Notes: a model not told the origin generated them from the letters alone. A stretch of 64,000 nt of DNA from Candidatus Cloacimonadales bacterium (GCA_963663475.2 CAXXJV010000001.1:1344001-1408000), one strand, 5' to 3'; numbered from the stretch's first letter, positions 21,987 through 43,099 are shown. A program made the numbers and translations.

Positions 21987-23462
21987 AAGAGGTTACCAGA
22001 TGATGAACAGATACTTAGCTGAATGTATTTTCTTTTGGAAAATGCGACTAAATTACGAATGCAAAATGGAGTCGACAACAGAACTCAAAAGTATGAGTAA
22101 ATGTCTCATTTTTCAAAAGAGATACATGACTCAGGATACATAAAAAAGGTGTCCACTATATTGGTACTTGACAATTCGTTCCTTGGATCCAGAGACTAAT
22201 ATGATAATGGGCTGGTGCATGACAGATGACACATATGGTTCTATTGAGATAAAGACAGCTATCATAGATGGAATAATCAAGCATAGATGTATTCCTAAGC
22301 AGATATATTTAGAATGTGATAAAAGAATGCGGGAAAGCGGATTGATTGAAGGTTTAGAGAAGTTAGGAATAGAAGTAATAGGAACTCCTTACAATCCGAC
22401 AGCTAAGGTTAATGTAGAGCGAAGTTTTGGCAATGACAGGATGGAGCTTGATAGCAAGTATGATTCTTATATTAACCACAACACAGTTGAGCGTCCAGAT
22501 GATGCAGACAGAAGAGTTTTCACCAATTACGAGGAGTATTTCCAGGATTATGCAGATTATGTAGAGCATTGGAATACCCAGCGACCAAGTATCTTCAGGG
22601 GCAAGATAAAAATGACTCCTGTAGATATGTGGAATGCCTGGATAAAGAGAGGTTGGAAACCTGAAATGTTACCAATGAATGTAATTGACCATATTCCTTA
22701 CTGGTTTGGCAAGAAAGAAGTAAGGGTAGTTCAGGGTGGTAGAGTAAGATTTACTATAGATGGTGAGCAGTTCTACTATTTAGGAGAGTGCTTAATGCAA
22801 CTTCCTAATGGAACCCCTGTAGATATAAGAAGAAAGTTTAATGATCCTCGAGAGGGTTATGTATATATAGGTAATGAGAATTTAGGCAAGATATTCTTAC
22901 AAGAGAAAGTAGGTTATGGATTCTTAGAGTTCTCACAACCGGAAGCTGTGAAAATGGTACAAGGATTTAATCTCATGAGAACCAAGTTATTGAAGGTTAA
23001 TGATGAAGATTATCCATTTATCAAATCTTATCTTAATAGAATTGAGGAACTTAGCAAGTCACAAATCAAAGACGCAACTATGTTAATCCCCAATAAGATC
23101 ATTCGTTTCATCAACGAAAAGACAGGTTCAGCTTTAGAAGTATCTGAGAAGATGCGACAAGAAGAAGTATCAGTTCTTAAGGTTAAGAGTGGTTTAACTA
23201 GGAAGATGGATAGTAAGGTGAATGATTTGGATGATGAAATTAGTGCCTTATTGGGAGGAAGTGGAGAGTGATTTTGAATTGAGAATAAAGGGATATTTGA
23301 ACAGAGAATAGAGTGATTAAGAGTGAGAAATGTAGGGGCGAAACATCTTTCGCCCAATTAAGAAACCACCCCGTCTTGGAAATACCAAGACACCCCTCCA
23401 CAGAGGGGAATTAAGAATGCCGGCAAGATGCCAGCGTTCCCAGTAAAATAAGGAGTAAGAGA

Positions 23463-23735
23463 ATGGAATTAGAAGTAATATTAAAAGAATGGGAAGATGA
23501 AGTAAGTGATTTATACAAGTTACTTCAGCAGGATGAGGAAGAGAAGAAGAAGATCAATCTCAAAATGAAAGAGAGTGAACTAGGTCAACAACGATTGGAG
23601 TTAACCAGGAGAATTAAAAAGATAAAAGGCTTAATTGAGCAAAGACGCTTTGAGATATCCGGGTTAAAGAAAGCTGAACAAAGGCTTAAAGGCAAGGTAA
23701 AGGCAAAGAGGCGATTAACCATAGGAGAAAATTAA
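23463..23735 (+). CDS. Phage coiled-coil hypothetical protein
   Basis: AAGGAG RBS; heptad-rich. Confidence 0.7.
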   Translation: MELEVILKEWEDEVSDLYKLLQQDEEEKKKINLKMKESELGQQRLELTRRIKKIKGLIEQRRFEISGLKKAEQRLKGKVKAKRRLTIGEN

Positions 23736-23739
23736 GGCA

Positions 23740-23925
23740 ATGCTATGCAGGTACTGTAATGGGAAGTTAAAGGTAATTAAGACCGAGTGTAATGATAGTG
23801 GAGTAATGCGAATAAGACGCTGTAATGATTGCGGAATGGTAATCACTACCTTTGAGAAAAACAGTCAGGAGAAAAGAGCCAATGGAAAGAAAAGCAGCAA
23901 TAAGGCTGATTTGGCACAAAAGTAA
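23740..23925 (+). CDS. Zinc-ribbon protein (Ogr/Delta- or NrdR-N-like)
   Basis: CRYC...RIRRCNDCG..ITTFE. Confidence 0.7.
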   Translation: MLCRYCNGKLKVIKTECNDSGVMRIRRCNDCGMVITTFEKNSQEKRANGKKSSNKADLAQK

Positions 23926-24283
23926 AGACATGGGATGGACACCTGAAGAGCTTCATCAGCAGATAGGTAGTCTAAACATGGTTCGATTTGATAGGATAAG
24001 CTGTTGTTCAGGACGGGAGTTATCTCTAATCCTGAACCAGCTTTTTCAGGTTCAAGCATTTGTGGCAGACAGTAAATCGGTAAGATATTTGAAGTATCTG
24101 TGTAAAGATAATGATAATAAGGAGACCTTGAAAGGTATTCTTAAGCGTTGGAAAAAGCAAAGTGTATATCAAATGAATAACAAGCAATTAGCGTTTGCTA
24201 TATCGTTTTTAAAGGGAGATGAGACTGGAGTTAGGAGTGAGGAGTTGAAGAGGCTCACCACAGAGAACACAGAGAAGAATTGA
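23882..24283 (+). CDS. Mu gp16/GemA-like (DUF1018-like) protein
   Basis: AIRLIWHKSKDMGWTPEELHQ...SGRELSLILNQL pattern; C-terminus runs into repeats. Confidence 0.6.
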   Translation: MERKAAIRLIWHKSKDMGWTPEELHQQIGSLNMVRFDRISCCSGRELSLILNQLFQVQAFVADSKSVRYLKYLCKDNDNKETLKGILKRWKKQSVYQMNNKQLAFAISFLKGDETGVRSEELKRLTTENTEKN

Positions 24284-24357
24284 GAATTGAGAGTTGAGAG
24301 TTGAGAATTTCCTCACACGAAGACACGAAGACACGAAGAAAAAAAAGGAGTAAAATT

Positions 24358-24582
24358 ATGACTATATTTTTATTATTCACCACGATGGTATTAGCAATAA
24401 TGCTTACTTTATCATTTTTCGGTTCAACAGGCCGAATATCAGAATTAGAAGAGAAGAACTTTCTTTTAAAGAGTGAGAACTATCAATTAAAGCAGAAGTT
24501 TAACCAATCACAAGACAAGCTAAAGCTTATAAAAGTTCAAGCTAAGAAATTGAGAAATATTCAGAAGTATAGGGGGTGCTAA
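24358..24582 (+). CDS. Small membrane-anchored coiled-coil protein
   Basis: AAGGAG RBS; N-terminal hydrophobic helix. Confidence 0.65.
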   Translation: MTIFLLFTTMVLAIMLTLSFFGSTGRISELEEKNFLLKSENYQLKQKFNQSQDKLKLIKVQAKKLRNIQKYRGC

Positions 24583-24813
24583 ATGGCTGCTTTGCATAAG
24601 GCATTAGTACAGAATGACGGTATATACTGTAATGGCACCTGGTATTATCATAAGGATATCTTAGTGAAAATGGGCCAAGAGTGCCTGGTGGAGAAAACAG
24701 GATTAGGAGAAAGAGCTAATATTTATGATTTAGAAGGTGAGAGATGGGATGGCCAAGCCCAAGCCGTGGTAACGGTGAGTGTTAAGCCTTTGAAGAGAGG
24801 AGTTAGGAAATGA
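24583..24813 (+). CDS. Stand-alone Mu transposase C-terminal-like domain
   Basis: VQNDGIYCNGTWYY...MGQECLV...IYDLEG parallels VQGGRVRFTIDGEQFYY...NGTPVDI...YVYIG of the transposase. Confidence 0.55.
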   Translation: MAALHKALVQNDGIYCNGTWYYHKDILVKMGQECLVEKTGLGERANIYDLEGERWDGQAQAVVTVSVKPLKRGVRK

Positions 24814-25046
24814 AGTGCTTCACACGAAGGCACGAAGGCACGAAGAAGAAAAACCCCTTAACACAGAGTTTCACAGAGGTTAAGAGGAGTTTCACAGAGG
24901 TTTGAGAGTGGAAAGGATATGAAAAGCGTACTGGAATACGCATTTATACAATTTTAGATATTAACAAATAAGTCAAGAAGAAATTAAGAATTAAAGAGAA
25001 TGCGGGCAGGGATGCCCACGTTCCCAGTTAATTAAAGGAGAAAAAG

Positions 25047-25688
25047 ATGTTTAAGTTTTTAGAAGCACGAAAAGAGGGAAACAAGACTATCTTAAGCGTT
25101 CCCAGATGTTTATATGAAGATTTTAGAAATGAAATAATGTTATTAATACATGGTAGTTTACTTATCGTTAATGATCATAAGGATTTCCAAAAACAGGTAG
25201 AAAAACTGGAAAGTTTTTTGAGTGGTTCGGATCTACATATTTCTCGAGATACTCTTTCGGTATATCTTGCTTACAGTAATTGTACGGAAATATATTTGAC
25301 CACACACGGAGTAAAAAGGGGCTGTAAAATGAATGAAAAGGCCACAGCAGAAGCCATGAAAGATGTATTTCGTGCTTCTGATATTCTAGAAGTTCTTGAG
25401 CATTTTTCTGAAAGCTTTGATCAAAGTCTCTTACCCGGGTCAGAGGGTCAGAGAAAGTGTAATGAAAGCACCAGATTGTGTAAAGAACCAGCTGAGCAAA
25501 GCGAGAAGAGGAAGTCTTTGCTTGAATTTCTGCGACGTGATCTGGATGAAGCGATGAAAGCTTTAATACAAACCGGACAGTATGCTTATATTTGGCAAGA
25601 GAATCTAATAGAGCTGTTTCGCCCGACACTAAACATAATTGATAAAGATGTTCCACCTGCTTCTCAGATAGAAGTGAAGATAGTTTAG
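25047..25688 (+). CDS. Hypothetical protein (overlaps antisense ORF)
   Basis: AAGGAG RBS; 213 aa. Confidence 0.45.
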   Translation: MFKFLEARKEGNKTILSVPRCLYEDFRNEIMLLIHGSLLIVNDHKDFQKQVEKLESFLSGSDLHISRDTLSVYLAYSNCTEIYLTTHGVKRGCKMNEKATAEAMKDVFRASDILEVLEHFSESFDQSLLPGSEGQRKCNESTRLCKEPAEQSEKRKSLLEFLRRDLDEAMKALIQTGQYAYIWQENLIELFRPTLNIIDKDVPPASQIEVKIV

Positions 25689-25734
25689 TAATAGCTTCAG
25701 CAACCCGCATTAGGTTGAGTTCATGTTGTTTCAT
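25168..25734 (-). CDS. Hypothetical antisense (moron-like) protein
   Basis: AGGAGG RBS and upstream TTGACT on the minus strand; 188 aa. Confidence 0.55.
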   Translation of the reverse strand: MKQHELNLMRVAEAITKLSSLLSEKQVEHLYQLCLVSGETALLDSLAKYKHTVRFVLKLSSLHPDHVAEIQAKTSSSRFAQLVLYTIWCFHYTFSDPLTRVRDFDQSFQKNAQELLEYQKHEIHLSWLLLWPFHSFYSPFLLRVWSNIFPYNYCKQDIPKEYLEKYVDPNHSKNFPVFLPVFGNPYDH

Positions 25735-25807
25735 GGGTTCCTCCTAAAGGTAAATTTACAAATAAATACAAGTATTAACAAATAAGTCAAGGAAAAAGGA
25801 GAAAAAG

Positions 25808-26080
25808 ATGAAACCTAGAGTGATAATCCATTTAGAGTGTGATAGTGTATTAAGAGAACCTAAAGTAGTTAAAGCCTTGGAAGATTTAGGAATCGAAATA
25901 ACAGGGACAGCTTATAATCCAACAAGTAAAGTTGATGTGACGATACAGAAAGAATTAACCCTTGAAATGGCTCACAAGAAGATTGAGAGCATGTTCGAGG
26001 GGCTCCCACCCTCTAAAGTAGCCAATATACTAAGTTATATTGCTGATGAGCTAAGAGCTGATACGAGGTTTAAACTATGA
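25808..26080 (+). CDS. Small protein whose N-half copies part of the transposase catalytic core
   Basis: IHLECDSVLRE...LEDLGIEITGTAYNPTSKVDV vs IYLECDKRMRE...LEKLGIEVIGTPYNPTAKVNV. Confidence 0.75.
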   Translation: MKPRVIIHLECDSVLREPKVVKALEDLGIEITGTAYNPTSKVDVTIQKELTLEMAHKKIESMFEGLPPSKVANILSYIADELRADTRFKL

Positions 26081-26370
26081 AATACTATGAAATAATAGAC
26101 CCTAAAGTAAAAGAAATGACTATACAAGGCATATTAGGGTCTTGTAACAAGTTAAATTTTACCGAAGAGATGCTTGAAATAGTCAAGAATATATCAGTCA
26201 GCCTGGTTCCAAAAGATAAAGGTACTTTATTAATTACAGCCTGCTTTCCTTCCAGACGGGTATTAGTAAAATCAGATACTCTACCAGTTAAAAATGCTGA
26301 TGATCAAATTGAAATAAGCAAAGAAGAGTATGATGCTTTGGTGGAAGTAGATCACCTGGAGGAAGAGTGA
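26077..26370 (+). CDS. Phage hypothetical protein
   Basis: ATGA coupling with upstream ORF. Confidence 0.6.
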   Translation: MKYYEIIDPKVKEMTIQGILGSCNKLNFTEEMLEIVKNISVSLVPKDKGTLLITACFPSRRVLVKSDTLPVKNADDQIEISKEEYDALVEVDHLEEE

Positions 26371-26582
26371 AAGAACAAAGGAAATATGTATGGAAAATCA
26401 AGTATAAAGGTGGTAATGGAGACTATATAGAAGTAAGTGTTATTGCATCAGGTTTTGAAGCATTAGCAAAGTGGTTGTACCGGAGAATATGGGTAAACAA
26501 TGTAATAACCATTTCCTTAGATAAAGAAATATTGGAGCTTGTTGATGAAGACTCTGATATACTACAATTAGATAACAATTAA
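26367..26582 (+). CDS. Phage hypothetical protein
   Basis: GTGA coupling; GGAGG RBS. Confidence 0.6.
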   Translation: MKEQRKYVWKIKYKGGNGDYIEVSVIASGFEALAKWLYRRIWVNNVITISLDKEILELVDEDSDILQLDNN

Positions 26583-26628
26583 CCACCCCGCCTATACAGG
26601 CATCAAAGAGTTGTCAAAGGAGACAAGT

Positions 26629-27243
26629 ATGAATAACGAACAATTTATGGAGTTAAGTCCTGAAGAAAGATTTGAAGCAATCAGGAAGCTCTTAGGAAAG
26701 ATGGAACTTAGTATGGTAGAGACAGGTAATCTGCTCTCTGAGATTAAGAGAATGCGAACATACAAAATAAAGGGTTATAAGAGCTTTAGAGAGTTTACTG
26801 AAGCTGAGTATAACCTACCCGGTAGAGTGGCCAATTCTTTAACTAAGATGTATGACTTCTTTATTAGAGAGATGAACCTGGATGAAGATACTATCAATAA
26901 GGTTGGTTTTGATAAGTTGGAGTTAATCCACCCAATAGTAAAAGATACAAGTTATGAAGTTCAGGAGGAGTGGGTAAAAACAGCTGAAGACCTTACATAT
27001 CCTGAGTTAAATGAGAAAGTAAAAGAGATAAAGGTAAAAGCCCGGGAAGAAGCAAAGACCTTAAAAGATGTCTTAGTAGAACAATATTTTGAGAACATGC
27101 TGGGTTACTTTAACTGCTCTAAGAGAGAATTAAGTTATAAGTTAGCTCTCTATTTCCAGGATATGGACTTGCAGGAAGTTAATGAAGTGATCAGGAAGCA
27201 ACAGAGGAAGTTTGAGGAAGAGGTAGAAAAGTCTTCACACTAA
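26629..27243 (+). CDS. Phage protein (DUF3102-like helical/HTH)
   Basis: AAGGAG RBS; GNLLSEIK...GYKSFREFTEAE motif. Confidence 0.65.
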   Translation: MNNEQFMELSPEERFEAIRKLLGKMELSMVETGNLLSEIKRMRTYKIKGYKSFREFTEAEYNLPGRVANSLTKMYDFFIREMNLDEDTINKVGFDKLELIHPIVKDTSYEVQEEWVKTAEDLTYPELNEKVKEIKVKAREEAKTLKDVLVEQYFENMLGYFNCSKRELSYKLALYFQDMDLQEVNEVIRKQQRKFEEEVEKSSH

Positions 27244-27345
27244 TTAACACGAATTTAAGCAAATTAACACGAATTAAGAAATACCCTTAACACAGAGTTT
27301 CACAGAGGTTAAGAGGAGTTTCACAGAGTTTTAAGAGAGGAGAAT

Positions 27346-27456
27346 ATGAAAAAAGGAATCAAACACAATGAAATAAGCAAAATAGCTAAAGAACTAAGAG
27401 GTTCAAGAGCCGAAAGAAGAAGAGAAGCGAAAAAGATAATAAAGAGAGGTAAATAA
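27346..27456 (+). CDS. 36-aa basic peptide
   Basis: GAGGAG RBS; TAATG coupling to next gene; SRAERRR. Confidence 0.5.
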   Translation: MKKGIKHNEISKIAKELRGSRAERRREAKKIIKRGK

Positions 27457-28067
27457 TGGCAAAAGAGATTAAAGAAGGAAAGAGTGTATATTGGGTCGAT
27501 GGAGAAGGATATAAGGTTCCTGTAAAGTATATCAGTAAAGATGATCAGGCCCGTGATGAGTTAGTGTGTAAAGTTATAAGTGATGTTATTGCACTTCAGA
27601 AGCAGATAGCAGAGTTTAGAGTAGATGTCTTCAGAGTAGTGGATAATCATTTAAACAAGGTTGCCCATCAACATGGTGAAGACTGGCGAGGCAATGCCTG
27701 GATTTATGATTTTTCTAAGGAGAAAGCCATCGAGGTTAAGATCAATAAGAGATTAGCTTTTGATGAACGCCTCCAATTAGCCAAAACTAAGATAGATAAC
27801 TATATCAAAGGACTTGTGAAACAATCAGGTAAAGAGATAGTTATGCTTATTAATAAGGCCTTTAATGTCGATAAAAGAGGCAATGTAGATGTTCAGCAGA
27901 TTTTAGGATTGAGACAACTAAAAATCGAACATCCGGAATGGCAAGAAGCTATGGCCTTGATAGATGAAGCAACCCAGGTAGAATCTACCAAGAAATATCT
28001 TACCTTTAAGGTTAAGGATGATACTGGGGAATGGAATACTATCAGCTTGAACTTTTCAGCACTGTAA
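27456..28067 (+). CDS. DUF3164-like protein typical of Mu-like phages
   Basis: YWVDGEGYKVPV..I...D..RDELV; FDERLQLAK; W.EAM.LI; ISLNFSAL. Confidence 0.8.
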   Translation: MAKEIKEGKSVYWVDGEGYKVPVKYISKDDQARDELVCKVISDVIALQKQIAEFRVDVFRVVDNHLNKVAHQHGEDWRGNAWIYDFSKEKAIEVKINKRLAFDERLQLAKTKIDNYIKGLVKQSGKEIVMLINKAFNVDKRGNVDVQQILGLRQLKIEHPEWQEAMALIDEATQVESTKKYLTFKVKDDTGEWNTISLNFSAL

Positions 28068-28129
28068 GAGAAGACTTTTACACGAATTTAAACGAATTTA
28101 AACCAATTAACACGAATTAGGAGAAGATA

Positions 28130-28444
28130 ATGAATGATAAAATAAAAACTATTGATGATGAAATAGATGAAATGATAGAAAATGCAAAAAGTGCAAGCCC
28201 GGTTAATAAGGAGGACTTGCACTTGGTTTCTGATGAAGAGTTAAGTTCTCTTGAGATAAAGAACAGGAGAATCCGCAAAACTGTTGATGTAGCAACAGAT
28301 AGAATTCTTAAAACCCTTCATGCTTTGTTAGATGATGGACTTCATCACGAGGCGTCCAAGCTCATCTTTCACGTTGAAATACCCTTTGTAAAGAAAGGCG
28401 TTGGCAAGCCTATCCTTAGCTATAAGGTAGAGAATAACAGCTAA
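28130..28444 (+). CDS. Phage hypothetical protein
   Basis: AGGAG RBS; overlaps convergent ORF by 117 bp. Confidence 0.5.
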   Translation: MNDKIKTIDDEIDEMIENAKSASPVNKEDLHLVSDEELSSLEIKNRRIRKTVDVATDRILKTLHALLDDGLHHEASKLIFHVEIPFVKKGVGKPILSYKVENNS

Positions 28445-28699: not shown

Positions 28700-28775
28700 A
28701 ATAGCCTCCTTTGGAATTAATTATACCAATAATCGAAGGATAAGCTAATAATGTCAAGTTTTTCAAGGAGAGAAG

Positions 28776-28988: not shown

Positions 28989-29659
28989 CCAACAGAGAGT
29001 TATATATCAAAGCTGTAGAGTTAGTAGGTAAGGAAGTAATGGAAGTCAAGCAGAGGCAGTTCTTACAGAGGATAATTAAGAAGAACCAAGCCCCTAAATC
29101 CCCTAAAGGGGACTTTGATAAGATGGGAATGAAGAATGAGATATACCAGGAAATAATCACTTATTTAAATAACCTGTCAGGTAAACAATTTCGTTGGAAT
29201 ACTCCAGAGACTAAAGCTTTAATCAGAGCCAGATTAAACGAAGGTTTTACAGTAAAAGAATTTAAACAGGTTATAGATATTAAGTGTAAGCAATGGCTGA
29301 CAAATGAGTATTTTAAATTCTTAAGGCCGAAGACTCTTTTTGGTACTAAATTTGAGGGTTATCTGCAAGAATGGATAGTCTTTAAGAAGAAAGAAGAATA
29401 TCAAAGGAAAGAGCTCGAGAAAGCTAGGAGGATTGAGAGAGGACTTCCTGATGAAACTATTACTCCGGAAGAGTTGAAAAAACAAGAAGAGTGGAGAAAG
29501 CAAAGTAAAGAGCTCTTAGCTAAAGCTAGTGAAGAGGATTATAAGACCTTTTATAAGCAATTAAAGCCACCTTTTAAAGACATGGCCTATAAAAGGGGAT
29601 TGAAGGATAATCTTGTGAAGTTGTATTATATTCAGTGGTTAAAAATGAATAAAGACTGA
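28985..29659 (+). CDS. Conserved phage C-terminal domain (Phg_2220_C-like) protein, replication-initiator related
   Basis: EIITYLN...IRARLNEGFT..EFKQVID.K..QW...FLRPKTLFGTKFEGYL. Confidence 0.8.
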   Translation: MTNRELYIKAVELVGKEVMEVKQRQFLQRIIKKNQAPKSPKGDFDKMGMKNEIYQEIITYLNNLSGKQFRWNTPETKALIRARLNEGFTVKEFKQVIDIKCKQWLTNEYFKFLRPKTLFGTKFEGYLQEWIVFKKKEEYQRKELEKARRIERGLPDETITPEELKKQEEWRKQSKELLAKASEEDYKTFYKQLKPPFKDMAYKRGLKDNLVKLYYIQWLKMNKD

Positions 29660-29839
29660 AGAGTTAGGAGTTAGGAGTTAGGAGTTTAAGAGGCTCACAC
29701 GAAGGCACGAAGACACGAAGAAGAAGACCAGTTGTCGGAAGTCGCTACTTCGTGAGCAAGACCTGTCATTAGAGTAATTAGTGTAATTAGCCTGGGTTGG
29801 CATAGCTTTAGCGACGCCACCTGGATAGATTAAAAGGAG

Positions 29840-31324
29840 TTGAAGATGAGTAGGTTCGCCAAGATATTAGCAATTAGTAGAATAGCTAAAAAAACAGGTA
29901 ATAATGGCCTTTCCAAAAAAGACCAGGAGAAGTTGTTTAATGCCCTGGTAAAAGATATTACCACCCCGCCCAGGGGCACCCCTCCACAGAGGGGAATTAA
30001 AAAGAGCAATCTTTCTAATTTTACCAAAGTGGCAGAAGAGATAATGGGAGATAATCCCCAAGTAACAAAGTCTTATACAAAATTAGTAGAGAAATGGATA
30101 GAGCCTTATTCAGCAGGGCAAAAGCAGCTAATATTCAGTCAATACCAATCCTTTAGTCAAACAGCTTGGTTTCGTTCTTTAACTAATGACTATGTGTCTA
30201 ATCTGCAAGGAAGAGGAGTTACTAAGGTTCAAATCTTGGCTTATATGGATGACAGAACAACCGAGATATGCCAGGCCATGCACGGAAGAGTCTTTGATAT
30301 ATCTTCTTATAGCATTGACCCTGATTTTGTTACTTATGAGAAGATTGAGTCTATGGGTTATGGAAGTATGCCAACTAAAGATATGAAGGTAATGCTACCT
30401 CCTTATCATTTTAATTGCAGGACTACTTTTGTTACTTATGAAGAGGCGACTAATGATTTCGATAAAATCAAACAGAAAATATATGATGTAGAAAGTTTAA
30501 CAAGCAAAGATGTTAAAACGATTATGGAGCCTCTCAAGGGGGCTGAATGGCTTAATAAATCAAAAGAGAGCCAGCACTATCAGAAGCATGGGATTGACCA
30601 AGGCTTAAGCAGAGAGAAATACAAGCAACAAATTATTGACAGTTTACAAGACAATGATAATATGTACTTGGCAGTTAATAAAGGTAACAAAAACCTTACT
30701 TTAACAACGGTTAAATATCATCATCTAAGTGATAAAGGTGTTAAAAAATACCTATTTACTATCTTCCTGGTTAAAGAAGGCAAGGTTGTTACCAGTCATC
30801 TTAAGCCAGAGAATGAAGTTTTGCCAAAGGTTAAAGATAAGGCAATAAAAGTTGTTAGTATTAATAATGGTAAGCAAAGAATAATAAAGGAAGCTATCAT
30901 GAAAAAAGAAGATTATTGGAACAGGCATAACTCTTATGACAGCATTATAGCAGAGGTTGAGGATAACAAGAAGTGGGGTAATTATCCTCTCAACTGCCTT
31001 GTTACCTGGTACCAATATGTACCCAGTGAGTTAGAAGATGATGAAGACTGGCATTGGGAATTAGATAGATCTATTCCTGCCCGTTATGATATTCATATCC
31101 TGCTGATGAATGACTATAACTTCACCCAGGAAGAAAGAAACTTAATAGAGAGAACTGATAAAAAACTCTTAGATAACATTGATTATTACTTTAAGAAGAT
31201 TAAAGTTATAAGCCCAGATGAACTGGCAGAGTTTTTGATTTGGTTGCAGGAAGCGAGAGAAGCAGAGAAGAAAGAAGAGTCTCACACGAAGACACTAAGC
31301 CACGAAGAAAACACAAAAAAATAA
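29840..31324 (+). CDS. Mu gpF / SPP1 gp7-like head morphogenesis protein with long C-terminal extension (candidate MuF toxin)
   Basis: DDRTTEICQAMHG...PPYHFNCRT; then HYQKHG-containing domain and acidic domain. Confidence 0.8.
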   Translation: MKMSRFAKILAISRIAKKTGNNGLSKKDQEKLFNALVKDITTPPRGTPPQRGIKKSNLSNFTKVAEEIMGDNPQVTKSYTKLVEKWIEPYSAGQKQLIFSQYQSFSQTAWFRSLTNDYVSNLQGRGVTKVQILAYMDDRTTEICQAMHGRVFDISSYSIDPDFVTYEKIESMGYGSMPTKDMKVMLPPYHFNCRTTFVTYEEATNDFDKIKQKIYDVESLTSKDVKTIMEPLKGAEWLNKSKESQHYQKHGIDQGLSREKYKQQIIDSLQDNDNMYLAVNKGNKNLTLTTVKYHHLSDKGVKKYLFTIFLVKEGKVVTSHLKPENEVLPKVKDKAIKVVSINNGKQRIIKEAIMKKEDYWNRHNSYDSIIAEVEDNKKWGNYPLNCLVTWYQYVPSELEDDEDWHWELDRSIPARYDIHILLMNDYNFTQEERNLIERTDKKLLDNIDYYFKKIKVISPDELAEFLIWLQEAREAEKKEESHTKTLSHEENTKK

Positions 31325-31880: not shown

Positions 31881-32018
31881 AAAATATCTTGACAGCGTGT
31901 AAAACACTGCACCCCTCATGGCAGTGAAGATGATATTAACGCAGGAATGATAGCTATAGTTCTTCGTGAACTATCTGATGAGGTAACTAAAGATTTGTTT
32001 CAATCCTAAATAATCAAA

Positions 32019-32048
32019 GAGCAGGCATCAAAACCTGCTCTTTTTTTT
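32019..32048 (+). terminator. Rho-independent terminator ending the plus-strand block
   Basis: GAGCAGG-CATCAAAA-CCTGCTC followed by T8. Confidence 0.8.
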
Positions 32049-32136
32049 GCTTAAAATTATCTAAACTGCAATTTAATTTCTCAATCTTAGAACTAAAGGC
32101 GTATTCAATACGCCCCTACATTCTCAATTCTCAATT

Positions 32137-32697
32137 CTAAATTCTCAATTCCTGAAGTGTCATTTTCACTGCCAATTCTAAGAAAGGGCTAGGTTTTCTT
32201 CCGTGTTTTTTCATATTGATAGCAATAGCCCAAGCAGTTTGGGTTATTTTTTTATCTATCAAGTCTTGTTTCTTGGGTCTTTTACTTCTTTTCATGCTTT
32301 GAGCTTTAGACCAGGCACTTTTTATCTCATTTTTTACTATTCCCTTCTTGCGAACCCATTCTTTAATCTTATCAACTGGGGGCATATGGGGCTTGATTCC
32401 TTCATGTAGGTACTTAGGATATTTGGTAGAACCTGAGAGTTTCCCACCTTCAGCAACATATACCAGAATATAGGTTTCAGTATCAGACACCACAGTTTTA
32501 GTCTGGATAGAGTTCTTTAAATGCCCTGTAACGACCATTTTCTCACTTTCTACGATGTTTATTGCCCTTGTCCTTATCTTGTCAGCAATTAAACCTAATT
32601 CTTCTTTTAAATGCCTTTTTACGCTTTCCATGTGTTTCTCCTTTAATTTATCGCCCGAAGTCCCTTGCCTAGGCCTGAGGGACTCCGGTCTTCTCAC
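32137..32697 (-). CDS. HK97 gp10 / Mu gpG-like neck protein
   Basis: TGHLKNSI, Y.KYLHEG.KPHMPP, PSPFLE; true start may be downstream at MESV. Confidence 0.7.
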   Translation of the reverse strand: MRRPESLRPRQGTSGDKLKEKHMESVKRHLKEELGLIADKIRTRAINIVESEKMVVTGHLKNSIQTKTVVSDTETYILVYVAEGGKLSGSTKYPKYLHEGIKPHMPPVDKIKEWVRKKGIVKNEIKSAWSKAQSMKRSKRPKKQDLIDKKITQTAWAIAINMKKHGRKPSPFLELAVKMTLQELRI

Positions 32698-32700
32698 TCA

Positions 32701-35796: not shown

Positions 35797-36003
35797 TTTT
35801 CTCCTTTAATCTATCCACGAATTACACTAATTACACTAAGAAATAGCCACCGAAAACACTGAAAACACCGAATATCTTAAATTCGTAAATTATTAAATTC
35901 TTAAATCTTCTCTGTGTTCTCTGTGTCTCTGTGGTAAAATCTTCTTTCTTCAATTCCTCACTCCTAATTCCTAACTCTTAGCTTGGTCCTGTCTACAACT
36001 TTC

Positions 36004-36733: not shown

Positions 36734-36735
36734 GA

Positions 36736-37569
36736 ATGGCTAAACTTTTATCAAAAAAATCTGCTGACCGCTTCATTGAGATAATGGTAGAAAACTCTCC
36801 AGTTCTCAAGAAGATTTCCTTCGCAACTCTCTCTATGCCTGTTTGTGAATATCCTCTTTTGGGAATTAGCAGATATAAGACTCGCGGGATTGCCCGTAAC
36901 TCTGTCGCATCTCTCGTAAATCCTACTGATGTAACAATTTCTTTCAACTGTAAAGAAGTTGTTTTACCTTTAGTTATTCCTGATTCTTATGCTGAAGATA
37001 TGAATACTTCACAAGAAAAAATAGCTAATTATGTTGCTCGCGTTTTTGGCCTGGATATGCAATACCTTTTCTTAGCAGGTGATACTGCTAATGAAGGAAC
37101 TGCTGATAAAGACCTTCTTGCAAAAACTCTTGATGGTTTGGTTAAGCAAGTAACTGCCAGTGGAAACACTGTTGATTATCCTGCTGATGCTACACCTTTA
37201 GACAAGCTTAAGCTCTTAATCAAGGCACTTCCCGATAACGCTTTGGCTGATCCTAAACTGGAAATCTGGATGGGTTCCTCTGATTACACTGACCTCTGGG
37301 ATTCCATTGCCAATAACTCTGCTGATAAAGCACTCTTGATGAAAGATAACAAAATCTATTATAGAACTAAAGAAGTTGTCGAAATTCCTGAACTCTCTAA
37401 GATTATTGTTCTCAATCCTGAGCATGTTGCAGCTGGTATTGTTAGAGATATGACTATCGAAACTCAGCGTTATCCTGAAGCTCGTGGTAACAAAGTTGTT
37501 CTTTCTGCTCGTGTAGATATTCAACCTGTTACTGATCACATGGTTATTGAAGGTAGCCAATCAGCTTAA
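36736..37569 (+). CDS. Major capsid protein (XkdG/P2-like HK97 fold)
   Basis: ADRFIEIMVENSPVLK, FGLDMQYLFLAGD, DGLVK; follows protease. Confidence 0.8.
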   Translation: MAKLLSKKSADRFIEIMVENSPVLKKISFATLSMPVCEYPLLGISRYKTRGIARNSVASLVNPTDVTISFNCKEVVLPLVIPDSYAEDMNTSQEKIANYVARVFGLDMQYLFLAGDTANEGTADKDLLAKTLDGLVKQVTASGNTVDYPADATPLDKLKLLIKALPDNALADPKLEIWMGSSDYTDLWDSIANNSADKALLMKDNKIYYRTKEVVEIPELSKIIVLNPEHVAAGIVRDMTIETQRYPEARGNKVVLSARVDIQPVTDHMVIEGSQSA

Positions 37570-37579
37570 GGAGTTGATT

Positions 37580-37777
37580 ATGCCTGTTTGTGAGCAACAC
37601 GCACGACTTGAAGAAGATATTAAATATATCAAAAATAAACTTGATGGCAATGGTCGTCCAGGTGTCCTGGAACGGCTTAGCCGTCTGGAAACGAAATTAA
37701 CAATCATAATCTGGCTTAATGGTTTTATGGCTTCTGCTGTGATTGGAAGCATTATTAAGTCTATAATTGGAGGATAA
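37580..37777 (+). CDS. Small membrane protein (XhlA/holin-like)
   Basis: AAGGAG RBS; coiled coil + C-terminal TM; upstream of lysozyme. Confidence 0.6.
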   Translation: MPVCEQHARLEEDIKYIKNKLDGNGRPGVLERLSRLETKLTIIIWLNGFMASAVIGSIIKSIIGG

Positions 37778-37778
37778 T

Positions 37779-38189
37779 GTGGGCGAATTATTTAATCATC
37801 CTGCTGTTGTATCTGCTATTAGTGTAATCTTTACACTTTTTATTATGGGGGCTTTCTGGATTATTAAAAAGCAAAAACTTAACTTTGACTTCTTACTTCC
37901 AACAGTCACCACTATTATTGAAGCTATCTTTGCTAATGCTAAGGCAACTAATCCTGCTTTAGCTGCAAGACAAGAAGTAGAGACGCGACTGTCTCAAGAG
38001 GAATTAGCTAGACTCTCTAAACGCTTAGCTACCAACGACCCCGTCCAAACTATATATAATACTATAACAAATCCGGCCAGAGAGTCCGGGGAAAAAGATG
38101 CTTCTTCCTGGATAAGACAAATTGCAAGTGGCTTAGGTGCTTCTGCTATCTCTGGACTCGCAAAAGGATTGGCAAAGAAGTTGTTTTAG
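37779..38189 (+). CDS. Putative holin
   Basis: GGAGG RBS, GTG start; N-terminal TM; precedes lysozyme. Confidence 0.5.
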   Translation: MGELFNHPAVVSAISVIFTLFIMGAFWIIKKQKLNFDFLLPTVTTIIEAIFANAKATNPALAARQEVETRLSQEELARLSKRLATNDPVQTIYNTITNPARESGEKDASSWIRQIASGLGASAISGLAKGLAKKLF

Positions 38190-38197
38190 AGAAAATT

Positions 38198-38647
38198 ATG
38201 ATGAGACACATTAAAATTCAATGTAAAGAAATCGCTCGTAAGATGCTGATGAAACACGAAGGTCTAAGACTTAAACCTTATTCTTGCTCAGCAGGAAAAC
38301 TAACAATTGGTTTTGGGCGAAATTTGGAAGACAAGGGAATCACTGAAGTTGAAGCACATAATCTACTTGATAATGATATTGATTCTCTTGTCTCTCAACT
38401 GATTAAAACTTATCCCTGGTTTAGGGAACTCAATGATGTGAGAAAGGCTGTTGTTATTGATATGGCCTTTAACTTAGGACTAGCAGGCTTCTCTGCTTTT
38501 AAAAAGACTATTGCTTACCTTACTCAGCATGATTACTCTAATGCTTCTCGCGAAATGCTTAACAGCAAGTGGGCTATGCAAGTGGGTTATCGTGCCAATG
38601 AGCTATCTAAGCTAATGGAGAATGGAGAATTGAGAAGTGAGAAATAA
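38198..38647 (+). CDS. Phage lysozyme (GH24/T4-like endolysin)
   Basis: HEGLRLKPY.CSAGKLTIGFGRNL; DMAFNLG; EML.SKWA.QV..RA. Confidence 0.92.
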   Translation: MMRHIKIQCKEIARKMLMKHEGLRLKPYSCSAGKLTIGFGRNLEDKGITEVEAHNLLDNDIDSLVSQLIKTYPWFRELNDVRKAVVIDMAFNLGLAGFSAFKKTIAYLTQHDYSNASREMLNSKWAMQVGYRANELSKLMENGELRSEK

Positions 38648-38694
38648 CCGGGAACGCTGACATCTTGTCGGCACACTAAATATAAGGAGAAAAT

Positions 38695-39216
38695 ATGTTA
38701 ACTAAAATAACAACTCTTACTTATGACTTGCTAACATCAGTTAATTCTGTATTTAGCAAACAATGTAGAGTTTATGTAGCAAAAGGTTCAATGGAAGAAG
38801 CTGATATACCTACAGACAAAGCATCACTTCAAGCACTCTATTCAGGTGTTGACGCTAAGTTTGTCTTTCTGGGTAACCTTTCTGAAAGTGGATCTAAAAT
38901 TGGTTGGAAGCAAAACTCAATTGCAATTGACTTTGGTTCAATAAATACCAATACTGATATTACAGGAACACTAATTTCACTTATGTGCGATAAAAATATG
39001 CTTGGTTTCATCGAAACTCAAGTAGGAGAACATTCATTTCTTTTTATACCTGATAAAGGTGATGATACTATTCTCTGTGCTCTTTCTGGAGTAACAATGT
39101 CTCATGAAGGTGAGATTCCTGTAGTAGGAAAGAATGAAACAGCCAAAATAACCTTAAATCTAACTGCAAACGTTAATAAGGTTACTGATGCTGTTAAATT
39201 TAGCAATCTAGCATAG
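38695..39216 (+). CDS. Putative tail tube protein
   Basis: Beta-rich 173 aa; position only. Confidence 0.4.
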   Translation: MLTKITTLTYDLLTSVNSVFSKQCRVYVAKGSMEEADIPTDKASLQALYSGVDAKFVFLGNLSESGSKIGWKQNSIAIDFGSINTNTDITGTLISLMCDKNMLGFIETQVGEHSFLFIPDKGDDTILCALSGVTMSHEGEIPVVGKNETAKITLNLTANVNKVTDAVKFSNLA

Positions 39217-39226
39217 AGGTGAAATA

Positions 39227-39658
39227 ATGAAAATGATAAGAATAAAGACCGGTAGTGAACTCCATGAGTTTTACGGAACTATTGATGTTACCCCTGAAAT
39301 AAAGCATATGGTAGAAGAAGAATGTGTTTATAATACTGGTCTTTCTTATCGTTTTGGTAAGTATTTTGTTGATAAGATTCAGCTTAATCTGAGTATTTCA
39401 GCTGAGGACTACGAAAATCTCTACTATAAAGTTATGAACTTGAATGAGTGGATTATTGCCTGGGAAACCTTAAACGGCTACCAATGGAGAAAATCTCGTT
39501 CTCCTCTCCCATATCCCTCTAAAATTCGCTTTATTAACGATGCTGTTACCCTAAAAATTGAGTCTGAACCTTACACTATACCAATGCAAAACATGACTAA
39601 TATTACTATGAATACTATCTGGAATGAATCTACTCCGGATAATACTATATGGAACTAG
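39227..39658 (+). CDS. Putative tail structural protein
   Basis: GAGGTG RBS; position only. Confidence 0.45.
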   Translation: MKMIRIKTGSELHEFYGTIDVTPEIKHMVEEECVYNTGLSYRFGKYFVDKIQLNLSISAEDYENLYYKVMNLNEWIIAWETLNGYQWRKSRSPLPYPSKIRFINDAVTLKIESEPYTIPMQNMTNITMNTIWNESTPDNTIWN

Positions 39659-39821
39659 GAGTGAGGAGTGAATAGAACACAATGACACAGATTAAACAGA
39701 TTTACACAGATAAGAAAGATTTAATAATTTCGGTGTATTCGGTGTTTTCGGTGGCTAATATTTTCTTATCTTAAGACTCTGTGTTAAGGAAATTTAAAAG
39801 AATATAAAAAAAGGAGAAAGT

Positions 39822-40649
39822 ATGATAAATTTACCCGGTCCTGATACTACAGATTGGGGCACTCTCTATAACAGTGCTATTAATCAACTCGAAACTATGA
39901 TTAATGCCAAAACAACAGAAATTTCATCTCTACAAACTCTTGTTAGCCAACTTCAAGCAGCTTTAAGCGAAATAGAAATGGATACGCAACATATAGATCA
40001 CAATGGTACACCACTTTCTGATGTTGTCCATAATTTGGAAGGATCTTTTAACAATCCAATAACCCCAGGAACTAAAACCAAAATAACTTATGATGCTAAA
40101 GGTTTTGTGACAGGAGGTACTAACCTAACTGAAGGAGATATTCCTGCACTTTCAATATCTAAAATCATAGGGCTTGAGGATATAATTAACATGGTGTTAG
40201 TTGATATGGATAGAGTAGAAATATCTGCTTCTATTCGTAATACAAATGGTGGAATTAGAGTCTCATGTTTTACTAATCCTCCTGTACCAGTACAATCATG
40301 GTCTGTAATGTTGGAATGGAAAGGGTCAATTTTTTATGATGTCCGTTCTTCCTCAAGTGAAAGCTTTATCAATATGGGTAATTATCCAGAAATACCTGAT
40401 GGCCAATTAGTTAATATTATGGTGGCAGCAATATCTGGAACCAGTATTAAAAAAAAGAACTATTCACATACTTATAATTATGTGGCAACTTCCATAGATT
40501 TAAGAGTAAAAGCTGTAGAACATGAACTCGCACCTCAAGCTCTCATGGACAGAATAGCTCAAGATGATAATATTCTGAATGAATTAGTTAACAAGCTTCA
40601 ACACTCTGGCACATTAGTACAGCGTCTTAGTGAGGTTCTTGCCCGATGA
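39822..40649 (+). CDS. Tail fibre-related protein
   Basis: GTKTKITYDAKGFVTGG..L...DIP.L.ISKI fibre repeat. Confidence 0.65.
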   Translation: MINLPGPDTTDWGTLYNSAINQLETMINAKTTEISSLQTLVSQLQAALSEIEMDTQHIDHNGTPLSDVVHNLEGSFNNPITPGTKTKITYDAKGFVTGGTNLTEGDIPALSISKIIGLEDIINMVLVDMDRVEISASIRNTNGGIRVSCFTNPPVPVQSWSVMLEWKGSIFYDVRSSSSESFINMGNYPEIPDGQLVNIMVAAISGTSIKKKNYSHTYNYVATSIDLRVKAVEHELAPQALMDRIAQDDNILNELVNKLQHSGTLVQRLSEVLAR

Positions 40650-40885
40650 CAAAGACCTTAAGAGACCTCAATGTTTATGAGTGGATGCAAGGCAAAACTG
40701 TAGCCACTAAACGCATTGATATTAGCCTTGAATATAAAGCTCCTATCTACTCCCTTGTAGATAAAAAGGAAGAAATTAACATCTTCGATAAAAATATAAT
40801 CACTGAATCTGATGACTTTCCTGCTACACCTGAACCAGGTCAAATTGTTAGAAAAAATGGAATAACATACATTTACCGCCCTTAA
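40646..40885 (+). CDS. Small tail-associated protein
   Basis: FPATPEPGQIVRKNGITYIY resembles the C-terminus of 41149-41733. Confidence 0.55.
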   Translation: MTKTLRDLNVYEWMQGKTVATKRIDISLEYKAPIYSLVDKKEEINIFDKNIITESDDFPATPEPGQIVRKNGITYIYRP

Positions 40886-40948
40886 TTCCCCTCTGCGGAG
40901 GGGTGCCTGTAAAGGCGGGGTGGTATAACAAGAAATAAGGAGAAAAAA

Positions 40949-41149
40949 TTGAATTTAACCGAATATCTCGAACAAAAAAGACAAAGCTTAATAGCTACCA
41001 ACAAGAACCTATCAGATGAAAAACTAAGAGTTGAAGGTGCCTGGTTAATCTTACAAGAGATTGAAGAGATAATAACAACCCCTAAATCCCCTAAAGGGGA
41101 CTTTGAGGAAGAGAAACCCAAAACAAAGAAAACAAAGAGAGGTAAATAA
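40949..41149 (+). CDS. Small coiled-coil hypothetical protein
   Basis: AAGGAG RBS, TTG start; TAATG coupling. Confidence 0.55.
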   Translation: MNLTEYLEQKRQSLIATNKNLSDEKLRVEGAWLILQEIEEIITTPKSPKGDFEEEKPKTKKTKRGK

Positions 41150-41733
41150 TGGCTTGGAAGAAAATAGTAGATTCATCATTTACTATTAATGGTAAGGCAC
41201 TAGAAGGTCCAATTGAATTAACAAAAGAAGATGTTGGACTTAGTAATGTAGATAACCTTTCCAGAGAACAACTAATTGCAGGACTTACAGCTGATGATAT
41301 TCCTGTAATTACTATAAGTAAAGTAACAGGTCTCCAAGGTGCATTAGATGCAAAAGTTCCTACTAGCAGAACTATTGCCGGTAAGCCCTTAACAGCTGAT
41401 ATATCTCTTGCTAAGGCTGATGTAGGACTGGCAAACGTAGAAAATAAATCACCTGAAGAACTTTCATCACTTATCAGAAGTCAAATTGTGGCTGATGATA
41501 TACCACTACTTGAAATAACAAAAATAAATGGATTAGTTGATTTACATGTGTTTCTAGCCTCTGAAATTAGCTCTAAAGTGTCTAAAACCACTACCATTAA
41601 TGGAAAGGCTTTAGATGCTAATATCTCTCTTGGCGGACAAGATATCATTAGGCCAGAGTCTTCTCTCCCTGCATCTGGTTCCCCTGGTGAAATGATTAGA
41701 TTCTCAGGTAATACCTATATATGGAAGGCTTAA
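41149..41733 (+). CDS. Tail fibre repeat protein
   Basis: Repeated TINGKAL..I.L.K.DVGL.NV.N and DDIP...I.K..GL units. Confidence 0.75.
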   Translation: MAWKKIVDSSFTINGKALEGPIELTKEDVGLSNVDNLSREQLIAGLTADDIPVITISKVTGLQGALDAKVPTSRTIAGKPLTADISLAKADVGLANVENKSPEELSSLIRSQIVADDIPLLEITKINGLVDLHVFLASEISSKVSKTTTINGKALDANISLGGQDIIRPESSLPASGSPGEMIRFSGNTYIWKA

Positions 41734-41734
41734 T

Positions 41735-42373
41735 ATGTGGGTAAAAGTAGCTGATAGAGAAGAAATTGCTAAGTTTGAGATTACGCCTCAAGCTAACAAA
41801 GTTACTAGTCTAATTGGTGAAACACCAGATAGTTTTATGGCCTCTGAAGATGATTTAGGCCTTATGCTTCTTTGCAAAGTTCCTCTTAAAATTTCCTCTT
41901 TGGATATCCAATTAGAAGATGATGCTGAAATTAACCTAGAGTGTTGGCAATATGAGGGACAGAACTCTCATTTAATCTTTTCTAAATCAGGCTTTACTGG
42001 TATTCTAGGTCTTAATACTATTCCTTGTGATATTATGCTTAGTCCTGGTAAATACTTTCTAAGAGTGATTAGTAGAGGTATCTTGCTTAAAAATACTACA
42101 AAAATCTCTACAAGTCATCACTTCCTGTCAGTTGTTGGAGGCTCAAGCGTAACAAATGACCTTATTCCTGATTATCAAGAACTTTTAAATCCTACTGTTT
42201 GGTTTGGTATTTATAATATCCAAATACAAGTAGCAAATAAATCCTTATATCTAGGTATAACTGATGATCTTCTAAATAATGATGATCTCATACTAGGAGC
42301 TTTTTATCACTGTATTAAAAGTGGCTCATTAACTATGTATGTCTTTGACGGTACTCAACAATATTCAAAATAA
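41735..42373 (+). CDS. Putative receptor-binding/tail protein
   Basis: Position after fibre gene; beta-rich. Confidence 0.45.
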   Translation: MWVKVADREEIAKFEITPQANKVTSLIGETPDSFMASEDDLGLMLLCKVPLKISSLDIQLEDDAEINLECWQYEGQNSHLIFSKSGFTGILGLNTIPCDIMLSPGKYFLRVISRGILLKNTTKISTSHHFLSVVGGSSVTNDLIPDYQELLNPTVWFGIYNIQIQVANKSLYLGITDDLLNNDDLILGAFYHCIKSGSLTMYVFDGTQQYSK

Positions 42374-42416
42374 CTGGGAATGTGGGCATCCTTGCCCGCA
42401 TCTTAAAGGAGAAATA

Positions 42417-42755
42417 ATGCAATATAAAACAAATATCAAGACTCTTAAAAGAGTATATGCAATTGCTAAAGAAGTAGGATTGGAAAACATTATCATGGGT
42501 TCCAATGAAGAAAAAGAAGTGAAATTTGACCTTAAAACCATCTTAAACGGTGTTTTCGAAAAGGGTTTAATCAACGAATTCTGTCAAACTGTTACAGGAG
42601 AGACTAAAGACTTCGAAGAAGTAAGCTTAACTGAAGTGGAGAGTGTCATACTGGGTTTTTTCGATGCTATCAAAGGGGACTTGCAAGAATCAAGATTACT
42701 AAAAGCAATGATAGTAACTCAACAGAAGAATCAGATAACCCCTTCTACGACATAA
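42417..42755 (+). CDS. Tail assembly chaperone; -1 frameshift product extends to 42835
   Basis: AAGGAG RBS; G GGT TTT slippery heptamer at 42653; -1 frame open to TAA 42835; upstream of tape measure. Confidence 0.75.
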   Translation: MQYKTNIKTLKRVYAIAKEVGLENIIMGSNEEKEVKFDLKTILNGVFEKGLINEFCQTVTGETKDFEEVSLTEVESVILGFFDAIKGDLQESRLLKAMIVTQQKNQITPSTT

Positions 42756-42892
42756 GCTTTGTCTTATGGCAAAACAATATTAACCCGGATAACTTAGAGA
42801 TTGATGAAGCATTTCATTATTTGGAAAAGATTTAATTTACTTGTAGGGGCGTATTGCATACGCCCTTCCATTGGCGGTGTGGTTTCATTCCA

Positions 42893-43000
42893 TCACCTTA
42901 AATATTTATCTATCGGATTACTTCCATCATCTGATAAGATAAACCAAATGATAAAAGCTATAGGTACTAAAAATACTAATATCGCGATTATAAGCCACAT
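42893..43000 (-). CDS. 35-aa single-pass membrane peptide (antisense moron)
   Basis: AAGGAG RBS; MWLIIAILVFLVPIAFIIWFILSDDGSNPIDKYLR. Confidence 0.55.
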   Translation of the reverse strand: MWLIIAILVFLVPIAFIIWFILSDDGSNPIDKYLR

Positions 43001-43099
43001 GGGTAACTCCTTTCTTCTCTGTGTCCTCTGTGTCTCTGTGGTGAGTTCTTCATTCCTGACTCTTAACTCCTAACTAAATAATAACCAAGTAGGTATAAT

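Follow-up and report, generated by a model that had tools for sequence, protein, structure and literature searches.

Short interspersed repeats fill the gene junctions of a Mu-like transposable prophage in a Cloacimonadales genome and turn over between its near-identical copies

The gene junctions of a Mu-like transposable prophage, located in a stretch of 64,000 nucleotides (nt) from Candidatus Cloacimonadales bacterium (GCA_963663475.2, CAXXJV010000001.1:1344001-1408000; hereafter the window), are packed with about a dozen families of short interspersed repeats. Comparison of the three copies of this prophage in the genome showed that the repeats are gained, lost and exchanged at the junctions in discrete blocks, with no evident target duplication, and that this turnover is faster than the divergence of the three copies. 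The feature is real; it is ordinary in kind, the units resembling repetitive extragenic palindromes (REPs) and bacterial interspersed mosaic elements (BIMEs), and unusual in its place and its dynamics. We consider it probable that small REP-like elements of the host genus, mobilised in trans, have colonised the junctions of the phage; the fast turnover of units in the junctions would therefore make the phage both their sink and their vehicle.

The host genome (G000; 3.3 Mb, 33% GC) consists of two contigs, C1 and C2, and carries three prophages of this kind, here called type A: the window copy (W), C2b and copy 3. While the preliminary description rightly put the repeats inside a prophage, it gave the span as 23272-43075, and the element is wider. 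Its outline in the window, with an insertion sequence (IS) and the open reading frames (ORFs) by which that was recognised, is as follows.

18917-47188, plus strand: Mu-like transposable prophage (type A), copy W, recognised by its ends, the 5-bp duplication ATTAA and its gene families
18917-18969, plus strand: left terminal inverted repeat with words resembling transposase-binding sites, aligned with its partner at 47136-47188
47136-47188, minus strand: right terminal inverted repeat, aligned with its partner at 18917-18969
20721-22172, plus strand: IS3-family insertion sequence splitting the phage transposase gene, with HTH_Tnp_1 and rve ORFs, missing from the other two copies

The inverted repeats are about 50 nt long, the two ends sharing 53 nt at 100% identity in inverted orientation. 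Terminal inverted repeats, 5-bp target duplications, several insertion sites, a DDE transposase and Mu-type morphogenesis genes mark the element as a Mu-like transposable phage. Its gene content includes a CI-type repressor, the split transposase, DUF3164, a Mu-F-like protein, portal, large terminase, protease, capsid and tape measure; a MuB-like ATPase was not recognised in the type A phage. The transposase halves at 19779-20735 and 22168-23271 match positions 153-306 and 308-553 of phrog_310, and about ten more copies of the IS3-family element, at 99-100% identity, are scattered over the genome. The duplications ATTAA, AAAAC and TAATG represent three separate insertion sites, one per copy. 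The second copy lies at C2:304099-330979 (AAAAC), and copy 3 is split over the starts of both contigs (C1:1-23265 and C2:1-14149), its halves sharing TAATG and overlapping by 10,658 nt with 0 mismatches and one 26-nt gap (window 24169-24194, within a gene). Since both contigs begin inside the same prophage copy, with a common TAATG and a 10.7-kb overlap, it is probable that the phage links C1 and C2, which leaves the assembly uncertain at this point. Long stretches are the same in all three copies (many 300-nt bins have 0 mismatches), and a few patches are divergent. An internal stretch at 32062-32097, adjoining a bidirectional terminator (32016-32043), resembles the transposase-binding words of the phage ends, and read contigs from the ends align partly there; by this resemblance it may be an internal enhancer-like site.

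We counted 12 repeat families in two classes, namely unstructured arrays of about three tandem words of 7-9 nt (T1-T6) and structured hairpin units of 25-60 nt (H1-H6). The words are GGAGTKA (T1), GAGARTT (T2), CACGAAGR (T3), CACAGAG (T4; in T4a with period 9 and three words per arm), ACACKAATT (T5) and CYGAAWACA (T6). H1 is a GTAG hairpin, H2 a hairpin with a CGTTCCCAG tail, and H3 consists of CCACCCCG, a variable hairpin and then a CCCCTC/GAGGGG hairpin. The preliminary description had proposed about a dozen families at prophage gene junctions, and the positions that it listed hold their motifs: GGAGTTA at 24227, 29661 and, as reverse complement (rc), 35955 and 43055; GAGAATT at 24275 and 32121 (rc); CACGAAGR at 24314, 24821, 29696 and 31283; CACAGAG at 24256, 24860, 27290, 35907 (rc) and 43012 (rc); CACGAATT at 27238, 28080 and 35815; CCGAAAACA at 35850 and 39728 (rc); GTAG hairpins at 23332, 32098 (rc) and 42843; and GGGA hairpins at 23417, 25000, 38648 (rc) and 42374 (rc). 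The composite CCACCCCG..GAGGGGAATT is complete at 23365, 29960 and 40882 (rc), while at 26584 only its 5' half occurs. Two families were added, H5 at 29730-29765 and H6 at 32640-32700. Different families are indeed stacked in clusters that end just 5' of ribosome-binding sites (RBSs), and the flanks of the prophage in the window, described as poor in these families, hold none of them, though other repeats are present. The clusters and units are listed below.

23272-23462, plus strand: junction cluster of a T2 fragment, an H1 GTAG-REP (23331-23356), H3 (23365-23413) and H2 (23414-23449), followed by an RBS
24210-24345, plus strand: tandem-word cluster T1, T4a, T2, T3, overlapping the 3' end of ORF 23852-24283
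24814-25046, plus strand: cluster of T3 (24818-24850), T4b (24856-24901) and H2 (25000-25033)
26583-26610, plus strand: half H3 unit; copy C2b has an extra 31-nt H5 unit here
27236-27347, plus strand: cluster of T5 and T4b, with different unit numbers in copy C2b
28068-28129, plus strand: T5 words (CACGAATT type) ahead of an RBS
29091-29118, plus strand: H4 unit (CCCCTAAA.. hairpin) of 28 nt, identical to 41079-41106, inside an ORF
29659-29765, plus strand: cluster T1, T3, H5 (29730-29765)
29957-30002, plus strand: H3 unit
31274-31315, plus strand: T3 unit in the 3' end of ORF 29840-31324
32095-32151, minus strand: H1 GTAG-REP (rc) and T2 words (rc) at the 3' end of a minus-strand gene block
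32640-32700, unstranded: H6 unit, in place of which copy C2b has a cluster of about 150 nt with T5, T4b, T2 (rc) and T4a (rc)
35812-35980, minus strand: cluster T1, T4a, T6, T5 upstream of the terminase gene, of which four pieces (22, 6, 13 and 30 nt) are missing in copy 3
38610-38681, unstranded: T2-like words (plus strand) and an H2 unit (rc)
39650-39790, plus strand: cluster of T1, CACAGA words, T6 (rc) and a T4b fragment (rc)
40877-40934, minus strand: H3 unit with flanks, 58 nt, missing from copy C2b
41079-41106, plus strand: second H4 unit, inside an ORF
42368-42404, minus strand: H2 unit (rc); in copy C2b another 36-nt H2, differing in its stem, adjoins it head to tail
42842-43075, minus strand: H1 (42842-42867, plus strand), a small minus-strand ORF (42893-43000), and T4a and T1 words (43007-43075)

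Some units overlap ORF ends (24227-24283, 31283, 38614) or sit inside ORFs (H4 at 29091), and units nest in one another, H1 having been found inside H3. One of the two H4 units of the window lies in the gene of a Phg_2220_C protein, and copy 3 has a third variant inserted where the transposase gene ends (23269); judged from these positions, H4 may be an in-frame coding insertion. The ORF at 42893-43000 is unannotated, encodes a hydrophobic product of 35 aa, has its own RBS and is followed by the H1 hairpin; the repeats at 43007-43075 are in reverse orientation because they stand upstream, in sense, of this minus-strand ORF.

Differences between the prophage copies are concentrated at these junctions. 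Between copies with 0 mismatches over many kilobases there are 14 indels of at least 20 nt that are not insertion sequences, 11 in junctions and three in genes; with junctions making up about 11% of the element, our own arithmetic gives a binomial p of about 1e-8. Most of these indels correspond to recognisable repeat units. The 36-nt H2 unit at 23414-23449 is present in two copies and missing from the third, where the cluster at 23272-23462 has received two other units, an H2-like unit of 42 nt at 23361 and an H4 unit of 25 nt at 23269; T modules at 35812-35939 are missing from the same copy. The 58 nt bearing H3 at 40877-40934 are missing from C2b, which has an H5 unit of 31 nt at 26612 and carries the second H2 at 42367. 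At junction 32633-32700, H6 in one copy is replaced in C2b by the T5/T4b/T2/T4a cluster between identical flanks. Comparison of empty and filled sites revealed no target-site duplication at the clean H2 site (at most 1 nt is possible); the H5 site allows 3 nt and the site of the 42-nt unit 2 nt of duplication ambiguity, and the H3 site at 40877, lying in a divergent stretch, gave no clean empty site. In short-read contigs of two samples of the same organism (runs X1 and X3), alleles specific to C2b reach about a third of the depth (85-102 of 287-336). The contigs break off at the junctions that vary, and position 24258 has an additional CACAGAGAA unit in 100 of 350. In a wastewater metagenome, represented by contigs only, the phage occurs at 95-99% identity with other combinations of modules at its junctions.

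Several of the families lead back to genes elsewhere in the genome. The preliminary description had stated that such repeats flank RAYT and GxxExxY genes, among others, and had seen no such gene nearby; neither a Y1_Tnp/RAYT nor a PF13366 gene was found in the window, and outside it the association holds for H1 (RAYT) and for T4 and T5 (GxxExxY). H1 is a short imperfect palindrome after a conserved GTAG, folding as an 8-bp hairpin, and the pattern GTAGGGGCG, loop, CGCCC occurs in 9 distinct copies in the window and the other loci compared. At locus L047, an intact gene of 209 aa (1275-1904, equal to G000 C1:1980774-1981403) has HFH and YWEH motifs (HUH, catalytic Tyr) and scores 28.5 bits on Y1_Tnp (cut-off 23). 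H1 units flank it in inverted orientation, one as reverse complement at 1199-1222 and others at 1687-1710 and 1907-1930, and their cores are identical to those of the phage; by its sequence and setting, H1 is taken to be a true REP of a host RAYT gene. Within about 76 kb the genome has five copies of this RAYT-like gene, three of them intact and two truncated. It holds an H1-like unit in its own reading frame (L047:1687-1710, equal to G000 C1:1981186-1981209, encoding GRGVLPYAQ), and one truncated copy (L028), the sole one inspected, adjoins a small GIY-YIG gene. PF13366 has four matches in the genome, and all three that were inspected are bracketed in inverted orientation by T4a arms (C1:697413-697808 and the gene at 700120) or T5 words (C1:737591). 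T4a also forms hairpins without a gene in the genome, and in the phage T4 and T5 are confined to single arms and to pairs that enclose no gene, most of them preceding phage genes in sense orientation. Read in this way, each T array of the phage appears to be one arm of the kind of word-array hairpin by which small nuclease genes are bracketed elsewhere in the chromosome. Among the few loci inspected, no Y1_Tnp gene is flanked by H2 or H3. The Y1_Tnp genes at C1:2619189, 1464160, 1064867 and 198709 were considered as partners of H1-H3 and set aside, their flanks carrying other repeat families.

The families differ in where they reside. Counts were made for one type A copy (A), for the two copies of a second, different Mu-like prophage (type B; B1 and B2), for a putative third phage-like region with uncertain borders (region C, C1:1905500-1940000) and for the rest of the genome.

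T1: A 3, B1 0, B2 0, region C 0, rest 1
T3: A 3, B1 0, B2 1, region C 0, rest 1
H2: A 2, B1 3, B2 6, region C 0, rest 3
H3: A 3, B1 0, B2 4, region C 0, rest 1
H1: A 3, B1 0, B2 1, region C 2, rest 8
T4: A 5, B1 0, B2 0, region C 0, rest 59
H5: A 1, B1 0, B2 1, region C 0, rest 38
H6: A 1, B1 0, B2 0, region C 0, rest 31

H2, H3, T1 and T3 are thus mostly in the Mu-like prophages of this genome, and H5, H6 and T4 mostly in ordinary chromosomal spacers. Beyond this genome, H3 was found in 18 of 151 Cloacimonadales genomes, including all six sister genomes of the genus, with 0 matches for a reversed control pattern, and the five H3 clusters that were fetched, from four sister genomes, all lie among genes of type-B Mu-like phages. 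G036, G052, G056 and G061 each have about 40 copies of H3. Of 12 genomes in the family, two (G000 and G061) contain the type A phage. L001, the closest relative of phage A, with a terminase 80% identical and synteny over 9.7 kb, has identical units of H1 and H3 as well as T1 arrays, partly at different junctions.

Other repeats are abundant in this genome. De novo family building showed that its commonest families (MITE-like palindromes, that is, resembling miniature inverted-repeat transposable elements; a CRISPR-like repeat of 36 nt; and CCCAGGGT REPs around two Y1 genes) have no member in the prophage; the CRISPR-like repeat has 88 copies genome-wide and a 79-nt palindromic MITE-like family 143. 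In the window, a tandem array with a 53-nt period (55539-56172) lies upstream of an rRNA operon, and its family, GCGGGCTGGAATCCCGC, occurs at many loci and flanks a RAYT-like gene of 189 aa at C1:198709-199278. Repeats of 300-800 nt are found four times in the opening 11.5 kb of the window (1-11562), and another multi-copy IS of 1693 nt occupies 62308-64000, with many copies at 100% and 75% identity. The 16S-23S spacer at 58606-58709 is only about 100 nt long and contains no tRNA gene; that of the rRNA operon at C1:983418-989211 has about 240 nt more.

Chance, low-complexity sequence or mis-assembly of a three-copy element might be invoked, in that short words recur in an AT-rich genome and two contigs end inside one phage copy, their ends differing by the 26-nt gap. 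Profiles of 11-mers, tried for the prophage against the genome, were indeed too unspecific at 33% GC to be informative, and 14-mers were used instead. However, in 100 shuffles the expected numbers of matches were 0.00 for CACGAAGRCACGAAG, 0.37 for GGAGTKAGGAGT and 0.00 for CACAGAGNNNCACAGAG, against 7, 9 and 2 observed, all 18 within the prophage; copy-specific alleles at about one third of the depth recur in independent short-read contigs of two samples, and the same units exist in other genomes. This explanation is already contradicted, and we give it next to no weight. It was also suggested that the repeats serve as short homologies for the exchange of phage modules. The content of junction 32633-32700 was swapped as a whole between identical flanks, H3 (40877-40934) and H2/H1 (42368-42867) lie roughly at the two ends of the divergent patch 40458-42775, the patch 27033-27451 ends in a cluster, and metagenome contigs join different junction modules. 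Other patch borders, however, fall inside genes (20411, 26348-26411, 24118, 43327-45898), and L001 is fully syntenic over its 9.7 kb with clusters partly at other junctions and no gene gain or loss there. Moreover, gene boundaries are the usual points of exchange in phages, with or without repeats. The role as recombination joints thus found weak backing, and we regard it as improbable. A function as decoys for the cognate nucleases, also proposed in the preliminary description, is not supported.

A weightier alternative is that the units are regulatory cassettes of the phage itself, the hairpins stabilising or processing polycistronic mRNA and the purine-rich leaders loading ribosomes, spread by recombination like the promoter-early stem-loop cassettes (PeSLs) of T4-type phages, with the chromosomal copies as leftovers of decayed prophages. 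The position of the clusters just 5' of RBSs fits this, as does the concentration of H2, H3, T1 and T3 in Mu-like phages of two different types and in the prophages that sister genomes carry. Relative to the flanking genes, T1 is oriented 10:1 and H3 30:9 in favour of sense, counts that include related phages and so are not independent samples. Four hairpins in series at 23322-23452 are far more stable than shuffled sequence (z -5.96), and hairpin 1 of H3 has four pairs with compensatory changes (60 cells), a level reached in none of 500 shuffles and far above that of slid controls; some H3 loops read TTCG. The tandem cluster 24205-24350 shows no excess structure (z 0.01), and covariation in H2 is weaker than in H3. 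On the other hand, H2 has no sense bias (8:10), promoter-like sites are not in excess (76 against 65.2, standard deviation 8.2, in shuffles), and a search of 18900-47200 against Rfam 15 gave no match at E up to 1. Only one strong terminator was found, the bidirectional one at 32016-32043; the sense-oriented H2 copies (23417 and 25000) give terminator-like matches on the antisense strand only, the other hairpin units gave none in the promoter and terminator scan, and the PeSL arrangement of a strong sigma-70 promoter joined to a terminator stem-loop was not found. Single units are evidently dispensable, because junction occupancy differs between near-identical copies. In addition, H1 belongs with a chromosomal RAYT gene, T4 and T5 flank chromosomal GxxExxY genes, and T4, H5 and H6 reside mostly in ordinary chromosomal spacers. 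A built-in regulatory role, especially for H3 and T1, is possible, weakened as it is by the dispensability of units and the chromosomal homes of several families; as an account of the whole, the regulatory cassettes seem rather unlikely to us.

We therefore return to the colonisation of phage junctions by host elements. Non-autonomous repeats circulating in this Cloacimonadales genus would settle in the intercistronic junctions of a Mu-like prophage, putatively the sole places where the phage tolerates them, and host enzymes whose genes lie outside the phage would move them in trans; the candidates are the RAYT-type Y1 transposase for H1 and the GxxExxY PD-(D/E)XK nucleases for T4 and T5. A transposable phage that replicates many times and leaves the cell could be both a sink and a horizontal vehicle, and for H2, H3, T1 and T3 the Mu-like phages may be the main reservoir in this genome. 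The suggestion in the preliminary description that the phage is a sink or vector for host repeats is supported in that units were gained, lost and swapped between near-identical copies, at least three families (H1, T4 and T5) belong to host systems encoded elsewhere, and the same units recur in related phages of other genomes and in the wastewater metagenome. From these comparisons we infer the enzymes that move the units, the mechanism of insertion and the actual transfer from cell to cell.

Several observations weigh against this reading. Repeat density, which had been expected to be raised in the prophage, is not raised overall, high-copy 14-mers covering 508 of 2911 nt (17.5%) of its non-coding DNA and 71707 of 366906 nt (19.5%) elsewhere, and the expectation holds only for particular families (H2, H3, T1 and T3). 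H3 is not phage-bound everywhere, because a tandem array of ten H3 units sits between glyS and pta in G039; an enzyme beside this array was sought, and only housekeeping genes were found there. No gene was tied to H2, H3, H4, T1, T2, T3 or T6 in this genome. Transposition of a unit was never directly observed, and for some differences between copies the source could be recombination with other variants of the phage instead of insertion, there being patches of divergence elsewhere in the element. Finally, the sense-strand bias of T1 and H3 fits a role at the RNA level as well as it fits tolerance.

Short extragenic repeats with related properties are known from other systems. The REP/BIME and REPIN-RAYT systems of Proteobacteria (PMC3116915, PMC3337134, 10.1101/2021.07.10.451892) resemble the present units in their 20-60-nt palindromes, conserved 5' GTAG, extragenic position, mosaics or tandem arrays and compensated stems, and H1 is further like them in flanking a Y1 (HUH) transposase gene in inverted orientation. 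Unlike them, many units here lie inside transposable phage genomes, where several families mostly reside, H2 and H3 have no known enzyme in this genome, and the RAYT-like gene, with its three intact and two truncated copies, is not single-copy as in REPIN-RAYT systems. The nearest phage analogue is the PeSL, and PeSLs (PMC2839356, PMC4122927) are short stem-loop cassettes at phage gene junctions, where differences between close relatives concentrate, as here. They are, however, one composite motif, a strong sigma-70 promoter with a terminator, whereas the prophage has a dozen unrelated families, most of which the host chromosome also carries; promoters are not in excess here, and no hairpin unit is terminator-like on the sense strand. 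The integration of P. aeruginosa transposable phages beside REP/BIME-like sequences, reported in another study (PMC5977238), is a different matter. In open PMC papers and bioRxiv preprints, supplements excluded, we found no description of REP-like repeats filling phage gene junctions, and in open-access PMC papers and bioRxiv none of GxxExxY genes paired with inverted word arrays. Stoperators, known from cluster A mycobacteriophages, are short and asymmetric, occupy many of the gaps between phage genes in the orientation of transcription, and represent one repressor-binding motif confined to the phage. The short tandemly repeated repetitive sequences and small dispersed repeats of cyanobacteria comprise heptamers in tandem and mobile repeats of very small size, one nested in another, and they are chromosomal. 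Unlike the present case, neither is known to bring many families shared with the host together in one phage.

Few non-coding features of bacterial genomes are as common as REP-like repeats, and one preprint characterises them as inherited vertically, with transposases that are missing from horizontally moving elements (10.1101/2021.07.10.451892). A bolder and distinctly less probable possibility, which we put forward tentatively, is that Mu-like phages are the primary habitat and horizontal vehicle of H2, H3, T1 and T3 in Cloacimonadales: the units would be copied during phage replication by host or unrecognised phage enzymes, would travel in virions and seed chromosomes, and the phage would rely on them as interchangeable intercistronic RNA hairpins and leaders. 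If true, this would be a REP-type replicator with an infectious life cycle, against the strictly vertical picture for REPIN-RAYT systems. Empty and filled sites a few dozen bases apart make the rules of insertion readable, and three copies in one genome together with wastewater relatives offer a compact system for asking whether such repeats parasitise the phage or belong to the machinery by which it expresses its genes. The pairing of GxxExxY nucleases with word-array hairpins gains a phage context, and the carriage by a phage of RAYT-type REPs, GxxExxY-associated arms and two orphan hairpin families could be a natural route by which such repeats pass between genomes.

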